DNA of 64,000 nucleotides from Elusimicrobiales bacterium. GTDB lineage: Bacteria; Elusimicrobiota; Elusimicrobia; Elusimicrobiales; Elusimicrobiaceae. The notes beneath the pieces are model-generated. The model was given only the letters and a program-made list of their open reading frames with translations, did not search any database and was not told the DNA's origin. Each line of letters opens with the position of its first letter. Within the stretch, counting starts at the first letter, position 1. The stretch spans positions 10,126 through 74,125 of the forward strand of contig JAQTYB010000002.1 in NCBI GenBank assembly GCA_028688475.1, read 5' to 3'. The position numbers were made by a program, and so were the translations under genes. Shown piece after piece: positions 14,770 to 19,965 of this stretch.

Positions 14770-16443
14770 ATGGATGCCAACGGCGAGGACATCGAACAGA
14801 AGCCTAAAATCAACACTGAATGGATCCGCGGCGTGGCGCGCGTCAACAAACGCGCGGAAACCGGCGCTGACGCCCCCAAAGACGCGCCGCCGCCCAAAGA
14901 GGAAATAATCTCGACGCTGTCCGCCGCCGGAGCGGACGCTGCCGCAGACACGCAGGCTAAAGAGGAAAAAGCCGGCGCGCTGCCGCAAGCCGCGGCGAAC
15001 GCTCCCGAAAGCGCGGAGCCGGTCAAGGCGGATGACTACATGCTCTCCACCGGCGAGCCCGCGAACGCTCCCGAAAATGCGCCGCCGGCCAAAGAGGAAA
15101 AAGCAGGGGCATTGTCCGACGTTGCGGCGAACATGTCCCAGATTGCGGAGCCGGTCAAGGCGGACGACTACTCGCTCTCCACCGGCGAGCCCGCGGCTGC
15201 CCCCGAAAATGAGCCGCCGGACCGGGAAGAAAAAGACGGCGCGGTATCCTCCTCCTCCGCGAAAGCCTCCAAAAGCAAGCTTCCGGCCAAGTCGGGCGCG
15301 AAATTGAAAGGCAGGAAAAAAATCGTCCGCAGAACCGAGTCCATATTTTTGCGCATGCCCAAACTGCGCACCACCGCCGGCGGGTCGGGCATGAGTTTGC
15401 TGGCCCGTGTCAAAAACCTTTCCCGCCAGGACATGACTTTTCTGGGCGTAGCGGCGGCGCTGGTGATATTCCTGCCGCTGATATCGAGCTATATGGTGAC
15501 GCCGAAAGAGGACAGGACTTTGCATGCCGGTTTCGGCCAGCGCGTGAGCGGAAAGGGCGAGGTTTTCGAGCCCGGCTCGGGCGGCTTTTCGCCCGGCAAT
15601 CCCAACGGCACCGGCGATATCATCACGCCGCTGAGCGAGCGCGACCTGTCTTCGCTTATACTGACGGGGGAGGAAAACAACTCCGCGCCCGCCGAAACGC
15701 CGGCGGAGACGCCCGCCGAGACTACAGCCGAAACGCCCGAGCGCGCGGGCGACTCGTTTAGGGATGCAGCGTCCCGGGCGATGAGCAGGGCCGTCGAGTC
15801 GGCTGTTCCCACGCCTATACCGAGGATTAACTCCAAGCTGGGCGGACTCTATTTCTCGGGCACTCTGTCGGGTTTAGGCGGCGGAACCTCCGCTTCGGGA
15901 GGGGCCTCCTCCGGCGGGGGCGCGGGCCCGGTTCCCGGCTCAACCATACTGGCCACGGCCAGCAAAGCGCCCGGCACCGCCGCCGAGAGGCCCGCTATGA
16001 ATCCCATCGCCGTGAAAGGTTTCGCGGGCGTTTCCACGCATAAACCCACCGGCGGCGGCGCCACGCCCGAAAACATAAAGGCCAAAGCGGACGATATGAC
16101 GGTCTGGCTCAACCGCGCCGGAGCCGTGCGCTCGCTTGACAACGCGGCGAAAGCCGTTTTCGACGCCGGACAAGGGGGGCAGGAGAGCGGCACCCTCGCC
16201 GGCCCCGGCGGCAAAAACGAGCCCGTCAAATCGCCCGGAGTGAATTCGGTGAAAAACACCGTCACCGTCACCGCCGGCAAGGGGACGCTCCAGGACAGGC
16301 TCGATGAAATGGCCGCCACCACCCGGCTGCAAAACGCGCTCGCGCATGAGAAGTTCATGAAGTACGGCCTTCAGGAGATGGTTATCACGGCAATGACGGC
16401 CGCGCTGTTGAGAGGCATTCTCTCGCCTCTCATGGGGCGCTGA
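14770..16443 (+). CDS. hypothetical bitopic protein with acidic tandem-repeat cytoplasmic tail (cluster gene I; paralog of J)
   Basis: 557-aa ORF with SD GGAGGG. It starts MDAN, carries 44-aa repeats and a basic stretch (KKIVRRTESIFLRMPKLR), then a TM helix (FLGVAAALVIFLPLISSYMV) and a disordered ectodomain. Its C-terminus is LQNALAHEKFMKYGLQEMVITAMTAALLRGILSPLMGR. Confidence 0.65.
   Translation: MDANGEDIEQKPKINTEWIRGVARVNKRAETGADAPKDAPPPKEEIISTLSAAGADAAADTQAKEEKAGALPQAAANAPESAEPVKADDYMLSTGEPANAPENAPPAKEEKAGALSDVAANMSQIAEPVKADDYSLSTGEPAAAPENEPPDREEKDGAVSSSSAKASKSKLPAKSGAKLKGRKKIVRRTESIFLRMPKLRTTAGGSGMSLLARVKNLSRQDMTFLGVAAALVIFLPLISSYMVTPKEDRTLHAGFGQRVSGKGEVFEPGSGGFSPGNPNGTGDIITPLSERDLSSLILTGEENNSAPAETPAETPAETTAETPERAGDSFRDAASRAMSRAVESAVPTPIPRINSKLGGLYFSGTLSGLGGGTSASGGASSGGGAGPVPGSTILATASKAPGTAAERPAMNPIAVKGFAGVSTHKPTGGGATPENIKAKADDMTVWLNRAGAVRSLDNAAKAVFDAGQGGQESGTLAGPGGKNEPVKSPGVNSVKNTVTVTAGKGTLQDRLDEMAATTRLQNALAHEKFMKYGLQEMVITAMTAALLRGILSPLMGR
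14959..15245 (+). repeat. 132-bp (44-aa) tandem repeat, about 2.2 copies, inside gene I
   Basis: Copies start at 14959, 15091 and 15223 (partial): KEEKAGALPQAAANAPESAEPVKADDYMLSTGEPANAPENAPPA / KEEKAGALSDVAANMSQIAEPVKADDYSLSTGEPAAAPENEPPD / REEKDGAV. A degenerate copy begins near 14870. Confidence 0.8.
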
Positions 16444-16656
16444 ACTGCGCCCTTCGCCGCAAATAGATTAGGGATGTGGGCCAAAGGGCCTATGCCGGCA
16501 GGGGGCCTTTCGGACCTTGCCGCTGTTTCCAGACGGCGTAGACTATGATAGAGCCGGAGGATGTTTTCCGGCGGGCTGGCCTCGCAATTCTCCGTTTTTT
16601 TCGCACCGCGCGCCGCGCTTGAACGCGGCGGCCAGTCAGGCCTGGGGAGGCTGTTT

Positions 16657-19600: not shown

Positions 19601-19965
19601 AGCACAAGCGGTGGCGGGAGGGCAGGGCGTCGGGCAAGCTCGAGCTCGATTTCCACGGAAACCCGGGCGAATACACCACGCTTGACAGAGACAAAGCGTC
19701 GTTGCTGAGGCTGCTTTCCGTCAGGCGCAATGTTCTCAACGAGATTTCCAGAATCTCCACAGCCCGCGAGTCGCATGCCTCCTGGGTGAATAATTGGGAT
19801 AAAACTTCCGCCCTGATGAAGGACCCGGGCTTCACAAGCCTCATCAGCAGGCTGGCGCTGAAGCAGAATTTGGCGGAGAAGGAGAAAGAGAAAAAAGAAA
19901 AAGAAGCCAAGGATAAAGCCGGGAACAAGGCCGGCGCATCGGATAAAAAGACAGGCGCCGGCTAG
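16657..19965 (+). CDS. large hypothetical bitopic protein (cluster gene J): I-like core plus ~630-aa Cys-paired, coiled-coil-like extension
   Basis: ORF 16561-19965 trimmed to ATG 16657, which has the same GGAGG-N-TTTATGGATGCCAAC start context as gene I. The core is colinear with I up to about 18060. The extension has 18 Cys by my count, a GGGGNN repeat and a Lys/Glu-rich tail. Confidence 0.65.
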   Translation: MDANDAENLTPDEGAGDKKEIAGEWYGGKLPPDDMRAGQKEDAGAKRPEAAALPPVDARAGRTEPVPAKNERAEIQLPPIAARAGQGEGPSRSKVWDALKLPSIKVNAKSSGKKKTTRKTESILLRMPKVRSTTGVTGRGLLTRLKTLSRKDLTYLAGAAMLVVFLPIASNYLMKPENDRTLRPEFGQRGGGKGDVFEPGAGGFSPGSVSGSGDIITPLSARDPSSLILMPGEDKPAAPPPPAPAAQPPERVGDAVRNAATQAVSRAVQTVSPTPIPKLSASLRGLGAIGGERSASGGQLPGSGILAAANRAPGVPQRSTLNPVGMKGYAGASTHGPSVGSVSPENLRARSDDMGNWLNRSGAARSLDAAANAAIGAGQGTPGGGAGGRDEANKAGGVGSIKNSASYSPGRQSLEERLREMAATTRLQNALAHEKFMKYDVKEQIIKGFVDAAMKGITEPLTKMLAKALGGKAPDDDGVHCVCAQLQCVFGVFTYDKGKEYTEAGGCKDDPAEVKKQCTTQQLQSVGFKVMPCGKDAGGGGGDSDGGGGNNGGGGNNGGGGNNGGGGSNGPNGSDGNLQGAAKPSSRGANETAITQRQLVDQKYPETKKLVEKCKQALANCKGNGQNNGQGAQTSYFGGNGNGAEAYSNLNAFASCGAFCHVVASLYAGPVGNAFATCGNHGGPPPEGADACAKKLTDEQKAVCLKAAQAVAGLAGNNKGMHDADIKQIEGIKQQLDKNGQELDKLNQPDQPGNTAFLYNTFPKSGGSPLLAFFGGTLGGGYACAAPAEGDGSSDASARGNTGTEKQQTGRTRITGFKQGGNAADNAKVLAAAAEYCKNHKEDKDCASYFSIRDGGQQKGTAFPGALQPGFLEERKKALAELDAEIKAVVEQDRRLLSSAGEAAAGLTEKSRKGAEVADRAAKTVTGLKFDNNPKDDITRLEEAFNSLGDPGKSGGDGDDQCKTSLGCFAKVTGQDGDMSDEHKRWREGRASGKLELDFHGNPGEYTTLDRDKASLLRLLSVRRNVLNEISRISTARESHASWVNNWDKTSALMKDPGFTSLISRLALKQNLAEKEKEKKEKEAKDKAGNKAGASDKKTGAG
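18268..18363 (+). repeat. 18-bp tandem repeat (GGCGGTGGAGGCAACAAT-like, four good copies plus one degenerate) encoding (GGGGNN)n in gene J
   Basis: Read directly: units at 18292, 18310, 18328 and 18346, preceded by a degenerate unit from 18268. Confidence 0.8.

Follow-up and report, generated by a model that had tools for sequence, protein, structure and literature searches.

Streptococcal M and M-like proteins form coiled-coil fibrils on the cell surface that are hypervariable at their distal end, and their genes occur as tandem paralogs. Loci built of a constant and a variable part usually mark the molecules by which cells meet phages, predators and each other. Here we describe a constant/variable locus in the Elusimicrobia, bacteria that are widespread in groundwater, sediments and guts, are almost uncultured, and whose cell-surface biology is, to our knowledge, essentially unknown. 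The DNA analysed (the window) is a 64,000-nucleotide stretch of an Elusimicrobiales bacterium (GenBank assembly GCA_028688475.1, contig JAQTYB010000002.1, positions 10,126 to 74,125 of the forward strand) from a 2.4-Mb metagenome-assembled genome (MAG) that is 92% complete; all genomes compared below are MAGs. Two adjacent genes in it, I and J, encode a short and a long member of one membrane-protein family, referred to here as the J family. We consider it reasonably probable that I and J represent a duplicated envelope protein, that the outer two-thirds of the protein, with its helical C-terminus, is swapped as alleles within the family, and that I has lost this variable part and is kept by selection. 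The duplication itself is ordinary, and greater value attaches to the hypervariable family behind it: a class-wide protein family without annotation is now defined, its constant/variable junction is among the sharpest visible in genome comparisons, and it provides a concrete handle on the strain-level ecology of the phylum.

Like M proteins, with which it is compared here from general knowledge, the J family has a conserved cell-proximal anchor followed by a hypervariable alpha-helical distal region, many alleles between close strains and tandem paralogs of unequal length. Unlike M proteins, to which it has no sequence or fold relationship, it is held by an N-terminal transmembrane (TM) anchor in a diderm envelope rather than by a C-terminal LPXTG cell-wall anchor, its variable end is C-terminal, and surface exposure is conjectural. 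Type IV pilins and flagellins also combine a constant assembly interface with an allele-replaced exposed domain, but J proteins have neither a prepilin leader nor flagellin domains, are much larger (800-1400 aa), and have a conserved part that is mostly predicted to be disordered. The sharp junction, replaceable C-terminal alleles and tandem or orphan copies recall CdiA-CT, Rhs and MafB; unlike these, J loci lack a neighbouring immunity gene that varies with the C-terminus (in the window, J is directly followed by a terminator) and the J operon has no dedicated exporter gene. Pfam detected no toxin domain in 44 members, and the pair alignment that was inspected had no demarcation motif (VENN, PxxxxDPxGL and similar) at the junction. 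Like the J family, TolA and TonB are single-pass, N-in proteins with charged low-complexity stretches and a periplasmic region that is long and either extended or helical, but they are not hypervariable. A TolA_C or TonB_C domain was not detected by Pfam in I or J, or elsewhere in the operon and its scanned neighbours, and no ExbB/TolQ-type partner was seen among the scanned operon and flanking open reading frames (ORFs). An assignment to the ClyA-family alpha pore-forming toxins (Hbl, Nhe, XaxA, Mak) was rejected, the matches being marginal (E 6e-4 to 0.08) with no recurrent hydrophobic hairpin. Membership of the J family in the M-protein, pilin, flagellin or polymorphic-toxin groups is not supported, as it shares no domain with them.

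A constant half and a hypervariable C-terminus

Genes I and J begin in the same context, GGAGG-N5/6-ATGGATGCCAAC (MDAN...), and the start of J is best placed at position 16657 because GGAGG precedes ATGGATGCCAAC there exactly as in I. BLASTP aligned the two proteins with 198 identities over 386 positions (51%, E 7e-110), colinearly from I 170-554 to J 100-461, with residue 554 of I paired with residue 461 of J. A basic juxtamembrane box is present in each (TESIFLRMPKLRTTAGG in I and TESILLRMPKVRSTTGV in J), and the translations have in common a TM helix, GKGEVFEPGSGGFSPG, GDIITPLSxRDxSSLIL and MAATTRLQNALAHEKFMKY. I stops 25 residues past MAATTRLQNALAHEKFMKY, whereas J runs 637 aa further, starting at nt 18052. 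J contains exactly 18 Cys, mostly closely grouped between residues 481 and 968, which might form nine disulfide pairs; I contains none. No terminator was found by search between the two genes. An earlier note on this DNA had proposed that I and J are tandem paralogs produced by duplication, and had listed the start context, boxes, TM helix, motifs and 18 Cys together with a GGGGNN repeat and a Lys/Glu tail. All of these features are present, and judged by the alignment I and J are true tandem paralogs whose similarity is colinear and not merely compositional. In the family tree they are mutual nearest relatives (path 1.02) and form one clade with the same-genus ortholog (SH-aLRT, an approximate likelihood-ratio support value, 94), a topology by which the duplication is lineage-specific.

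The J family is present in about 150 genomes of the class Elusimicrobia, nearly always as one long gene. The gene is almost always single-copy, with an open frame of about 800-1385 aa (765-1385 aa within the order); orthologs in relatives have 805-1385 aa, the same-genus one 1385 aa. Within the order, the J family was found in 74 of 80 genomes of taxonomic family f2, in both genomes of f3 and in only 5 of the 144 genomes of the window's own family f1; genera g2 and g5, which have small genomes, yielded none. It is common again in other orders of the class, with all six f6 genomes and 30 of 32 from f8. Among the matches of a genome scan with a 9-sequence alignment, those that carry a name are all Elusimicrobia, Elusimicrobiales or Elusimicrobiaceae MAGs, and the others are labelled only 'bacterium'. 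Members are defined by an N-terminal stub, a basic box, one TM helix, the block EPG...(D/E)(V/I)(I/V)TPLSxRDPxSLI and a hinge helix, and by position as the last gene after homologs of window genes E, F and G. I and J both show this architecture with all invariant residues, which in J numbering include E198, P199, G207, P218, L219, R222, D223, S226 and L227; the Cys module and the long variable helical C-terminus are present in J and absent from I. Neither I nor J has a Pfam, NCBIfam or PADLOC match at E<=0.1, and the 44 members have no consistent Pfam family. The family and its operon appear to be undescribed in the libraries searched, and the literature on hypervariability in Elusimicrobia yielded only 16S rRNA amplicon papers.

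Evidence for hypervariability comes from close relatives. Among 38 pairs of members with cores at least 75% identical, 30 have no more than 30% identical residues in the C-terminal region, which in many such pairs gives no BLAST match at all and which ranges from about 350 to 940 aa in length. In one pair of loci (L055 and L062), nucleotide identity is 88-91% across the 10-kb flanks as well as the first ~382 codons, after which the genes are unalignable to the stop codon; flanking identity returns about 20 bp past the stop. In three pairs the variable block stops at the stop codon and the flanks are back at 80-91% identity. Protein identity falls across the junction from 98% to about 20% within 50 residues, while synonymous divergence (dS) rises from 0.18 to saturation and nonsynonymous divergence (dN) from 0.036 to 0.92. 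The dS jump requires old, different allele lineages joined by recombination and not merely to fast amino-acid evolution, and indicates, from sequence comparison, allele replacement of the C-terminal region between close strains. Nine close pairs were examined for the junction, and in eight of them it corresponds to J residues 446-482. The variable block contains no further gene in the compared pairs, which argues against an immunity-type partner.

The C-terminal region of J fits this pattern. Its first ~130 extension residues (hinge tail and Cys module) are homologous to the rest of the family (hhalign probability 93%), whereas the helical part is not detectably related to the C-termini of other members (hhalign probability 0.2%). 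Beyond the Cys module, an exhaustive phmmer search of 1.84 billion representative proteins found exactly one homolog, the metagenome fragment P0003, which has all six Cys-module Cys of J, besides one low-complexity match. A word-indexed homolog search with full-length J returned the P0003 fragment only and with residues 590-1102 nothing, low-complexity words having swamped the candidates. Because the family C-terminus is hypervariable, the J extension is almost without homologs. The columns of C481, C488, C531 and C533 are nearly invariant in the 44-sequence alignment, and in other pairs the variable region still shows weak colinear motifs and conserved Cys along its length. Constraint is evident inside a single allele: against a second strain from a public metagenome (locus L090, contig Ga0074195_1005368, 95% nucleotide identity to the window), omega (dN/dS) for J 586-1102 is 0.21. 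The C-terminal tail of J has indels in this comparison.

AlphaFold2 (AF2) models of J were of low confidence, both for the full protein (44-sequence alignment, mean predicted local distance difference test score (pLDDT) 49.5) and for the extension alone (2-sequence alignment, mean pLDDT 45.8, no better). The TM helix was modelled at 150-173, with the hydropathy maximum at 152-170, and only the hinge helix at 414-468 was predicted with pLDDT 75-87. The conserved ectodomain appeared mostly unstructured despite its invariant EPG...TPLSxRDPxSLI block, and the C-terminal region appeared all-alpha with 50-residue helices. Every member has one strong hydrophobic helix near the N-terminus, preceded by the conserved stub (MNFYNEDEKKDG... 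in f2) and the basic box. A second TM segment at the hinge tail was rejected, since the 15 residues concerned have a hydropathy of only 1.2-1.75 and form part of a single unbroken predicted helix. The TM helix of I has a Kyte-Doolittle peak of 2.21 at residues 225-243, and the repeat in its cytoplasmic tail has a period of 132, with 1.9 copies and 78% matches (Tandem Repeats Finder). In a group of long members (L028, L032, L036, L037, L039, L041 and L047) the last ~150 residues hold a common beta-rich segment finishing in a Cys that precedes the stop by one to a few residues (...GKPCK, ...GLQCK); the segment has no Pfam match, and J does not have it.

Gene I, a probable headless copy

I ends at the equivalent of J residue ~464, within the junction interval, and because it stops there it consists of the constant half alone. 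No other complete short form occurs in the ~80 family-carrying genomes of the order. Of 139 family-consensus residues, I keeps 76 and J 82, and every family-invariant residue is retained in I. In the L090 strain both genes are intact and I again has 557 aa. Omega between the window and this strain is 0.47 for I, 0.20 for J and 0.14-0.20 for neighbouring genes; within I it is 0.78 for residues 1-190, 0.46 for the core and 0.13 for the hinge, and the corresponding J constant ectodomain and hinge give 0.15 and 0. These ratios and the retained residues indicate that I is under purifying selection and is not decaying. In the same comparison, the sequence upstream of I matches only from ~15 nt before its start (L090 1-132 versus window 14623-14754): the 341-nt spacer of the window is unrecognisable in L090, whose contig ends 147 nt upstream of I, a difference that may reflect rearrangement or a variable spacer.

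Short forms in other orders are of independent origin and lie in paralog arrays, as in genome G400 (477, 477 and 573 aa). A tandem pair in genome G368 (L094 2787-4133 and 5356-6702; G368:C6) carries unrelated C-termini on a near-identical base, a 1347-bp stretch 99.9% identical that corresponds to the first 449 codons, with the first 449 aa identical. These short forms and the I/J pair amount to natural 'tip deletion' variants and could assist in dissecting function. The suggestion that I competes for the anchor or partner of J is plausible because I keeps the constant part and evolves under purifying selection.

Competing explanations and a model

The extension had been read in the earlier note as an extracellular effector or adhesion module, acquired by J or lost by I. 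The data resolve this choice to loss in I. The idea that J gained a foreign C-terminal module after the duplication could appeal to the helical part of J having no detectable homolog in other members and one homolog anywhere, but long orthologs exist in nearly all genomes (including the 1385-aa one of the same genus), the Cys module at the extension start is family-wide, and weak colinear motifs run through the variable region in other pairs. The extension is best seen as the normal C-terminal region of the family rather than an added module, given these long orthologs and the family-wide Cys module, and acquisition is highly improbable: the homolog survey proposed in the note found the long form to be the rule. 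The effector or adhesion part of the proposal finds no match to a known domain, whether in Pfam, NCBIfam, PADLOC or, at significant scores, PDB; what the data reveal about the region is its hypervariability. If the J family instead consisted of polymorphic toxins or effectors, with an anchor or delivery part and interchangeable toxin ends, I would be a toxin-less remnant. The constant N-part, replaceable C-part and sharp junction do resemble contact-dependent inhibition (CDI) systems, Rhs and MafB, and there are tandem copies with alternative C-termini. A PDB profile search of the family added marginal ClyA-type matches (Hbl-B 6e-4, XaxA 8e-3, MakE 0.08), which we do not trust, since they sit among generic coiled coils such as myosin, SMC and EnvC and no consistent hydrophobic hairpin occurs in the variable regions. 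Foldseek against PDB with the first, low-confidence J model returned only axonemal coiled-coil filaments (E>0.7, best 0.79). With a variable block that ends at the stop codon, flanking identity ~20 bp further on, no co-varying immunity gene, a toxin domain in none of the 44 members and no PADLOC match, a toxin family seems quite unlikely.

A relaxed periplasmic spacer, comparable to TolA domain II or a coiled-coil ruler, would make the variability of the C-terminal region uninformative about exposure or recognition. The region is helical, rich in low-complexity sequence and very different in length between members (~350 to 940 aa), and the N-terminal anchor suggests a periplasmic location. Relaxed constraint cannot, however, yield a rise from a dS of 0.18 to saturation inside one gene, and omega is as low as 0.21 within one allele while Cys and motifs are conserved across alleles; we regard a mere spacer as improbable. 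Another view is that I is a functionless by-product of recombination at the junction, a pseudogene in the making. Its branch is longer than that of J (0.64 versus 0.38), its omega is higher, above all in the repeat-bearing N-terminus, and it is the sole complete short form in about 80 genomes of the order. Against this, the intact ORF follows a ribosome-binding site and keeps its length in two independently assembled strains, omega stays below 1 overall as well as in core and hinge, all family-invariant residues are retained, and short forms arose independently in other lineages. With identity between I and J down to 51%, the duplication is old enough that a neutral copy would have decayed. 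We judge decay of I to be unlikely.

Several observations weigh against the explanation that we prefer, that of an allele-swapped envelope protein with a selected headless copy. The omega of I above that of its neighbours may reflect partial relaxation of selection, and the G368 pair could be an assembly artefact in which two strain alleles were mis-joined. No C-terminal allele is common to distant lineages among the compared pairs, and allele exchange is for this reason read from the dS jump rather than directly observed. The genome is diderm (BamA and four secretins), so an inner-membrane-anchored J would be periplasmic unless carried through the outer membrane, and an export route for surface exposure is not evident. 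Neither DsbB nor VKOR, which could oxidise the 18 Cys, was detected in the genome, an absence that is not proven at 92% completeness. The geometry of a fibre and tip is conjecture, since the structure models are of low confidence.

Under the preferred explanation, a family protein would be a single-pass, N-in envelope protein. Its constant part would comprise a short cytoplasmic N-terminus, the basic box, the TM helix, a ~240-aa motif-bearing ectodomain and a long hinge helix, and its hypervariable part the Cys module, a low-complexity linker and a 400-800-aa all-helical region that would be swapped as whole alleles between close strains. Conserved linear motifs in regions that are disordered in the monomer usually mean folding on a partner. 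The constant half may dock in the inner membrane, into a complex with the operon partners, and the helical half may point away from the membrane as the outward-facing recognition tip of an envelope fibre; we infer the docking and the tip from the architecture and the evolutionary pattern. Phage, predators or cell-cell recognition might place the tip under frequency-dependent selection. I would then be a tipless subunit at the docking sites of J and could, speculatively, dilute or space J. A wider picture, which we offer as tentative and rather doubtful, is that the D-E-F-G-J operon forms an envelope-spanning apparatus, with E and F as membrane base, the conserved disordered J motifs threaded into it, a variable tip and I-like proteins as regulators of tip number; the tip might then serve as a phage-receptor decoy or as a kin-recognition or adhesion device.

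Operon, neighbouring genes and feature coordinates

A conserved five-gene operon of membrane proteins without known domains ends with the J-family gene, immediately upstream of which are homologs of window genes 9038, 10410 and 12072 (E, F and G; Table 1). Of 48 Elusimicrobia loci, 34 have an E homolog and 29 a G homolog directly upstream of the J-family gene. Locus L047 has a five-gene block in the same order (4278-9767) with unrelated housekeeping genes on either side. Conservation of D was seen in L047 only, where the homolog has the same C-terminal motif; a tblastn search of the 48 loci gave no D homolog. No H homolog was found beside the J-family gene in these loci, and H therefore seems to be a lineage addition. 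The upstream ORFs at 7975-14428 have no Pfam, NCBIfam or PADLOC match.

Table 1. Coordinates in the window of genes I and J, their parts and the upstream operon genes
Feature	Position	Strand	Basis or remark
Gene D, membrane protein, no known domain	7975-8988	+	
Gene E, membrane protein, no known domain	9038-10492	+	
Gene F, membrane protein, no known domain	10410-12038	+	
Gene G, membrane protein, no known domain	12072-13289	+	
Gene H, secreted Ser/Gly-rich protein, Cys-rich C-terminus	13349-14428	+	
Gene I, short 'headless' paralog, 557 aa	14770-16443	+	Intact ORF, GGAGG ribosome-binding site
I, 132-bp tandem repeat encoding acidic 44-aa repeats, cytoplasmic N-terminal tail	15013-15263	+	Tandem Repeats Finder
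I, basic juxtamembrane box TESIFLRMPKLRTTAGG and single TM helix (residues ~221-243)	15334-15498	+	Translation, hydropathy
I, hinge motif MAATTRLQNALAHEKFMKY and terminal 25-residue hydrophobic/amphipathic tail	16309-16440	+	Translation
Gene J, full-length family member, 1102 aa from MDAN	16657-19965	+	ORF, GGAGG site
J, cytoplasmic tail (residues 1-149, including basic box) and TM helix (150-173)	16657-17175	+	AF2, hydropathy
J, constant ectodomain (174-410, conserved linear motifs, mostly predicted disordered) and hinge helix (411-468)	17176-18060	+	
J, Cys module opening the extension (residues 469-535)	18061-18261	+	Cys 481, 483, 488, 507, 518, 533
J, Gly/Asn low-complexity linker	18262-18411	+	G 50%, N 18%
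J, (GGGGNN)n 18-bp repeat in linker, 4.2 copies	18292-18366	+	Tandem Repeats Finder, period 18
J, all-alpha variable 'head' (residues 586-1070), 12 Cys	18412-19866	+	AF2 long helices, low confidence
J, Lys/Glu/Ala-rich C-terminal tail	19867-19962	+	K 31%, A 19%, E 16%
Intrinsic terminator closing the operon after J, strong	19996-20027	+	13-bp stem, 10 G-C pairs, then T-run

The upstream proteins have features of their own. D has a single TM helix and ends in an EM-I...ILGP-FG motif resembling the I/J hinge tail. In both E and F, a basic stub at the N-terminus is followed by one TM helix, a disordered region and, at the C-terminus, a bundle of TM helices rich in Ala, Gly and Met. G has a single TM helix and a Cys-rich C-terminus, and H has a signal peptide, a Ser/Gly/Thr-rich composition, a C-terminal cluster of ~10 Cys and a weak Pfam match to Toxin_12 (knottin-like, E 0.026). 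G, H and J are all Cys-rich outside the membrane, although DsbB and VKOR went undetected in this genome. In the f2 family genes (L042-L089) the cytoplasmic N-terminus MNFYNEDEKKDGAP is very strongly conserved over the first 15 codons, and window gene G opens with the similar NTQFDESEKDGEKRRSGFLP; this common N-terminal string could act in the cytoplasm as a recognition or targeting motif. A second, divergent Omp85-family gene (47 bits) in an open frame of 509 aa is located at 26298-27104 (G000:C114:36423-37229), some 6 kb beyond the operon on its downstream side.

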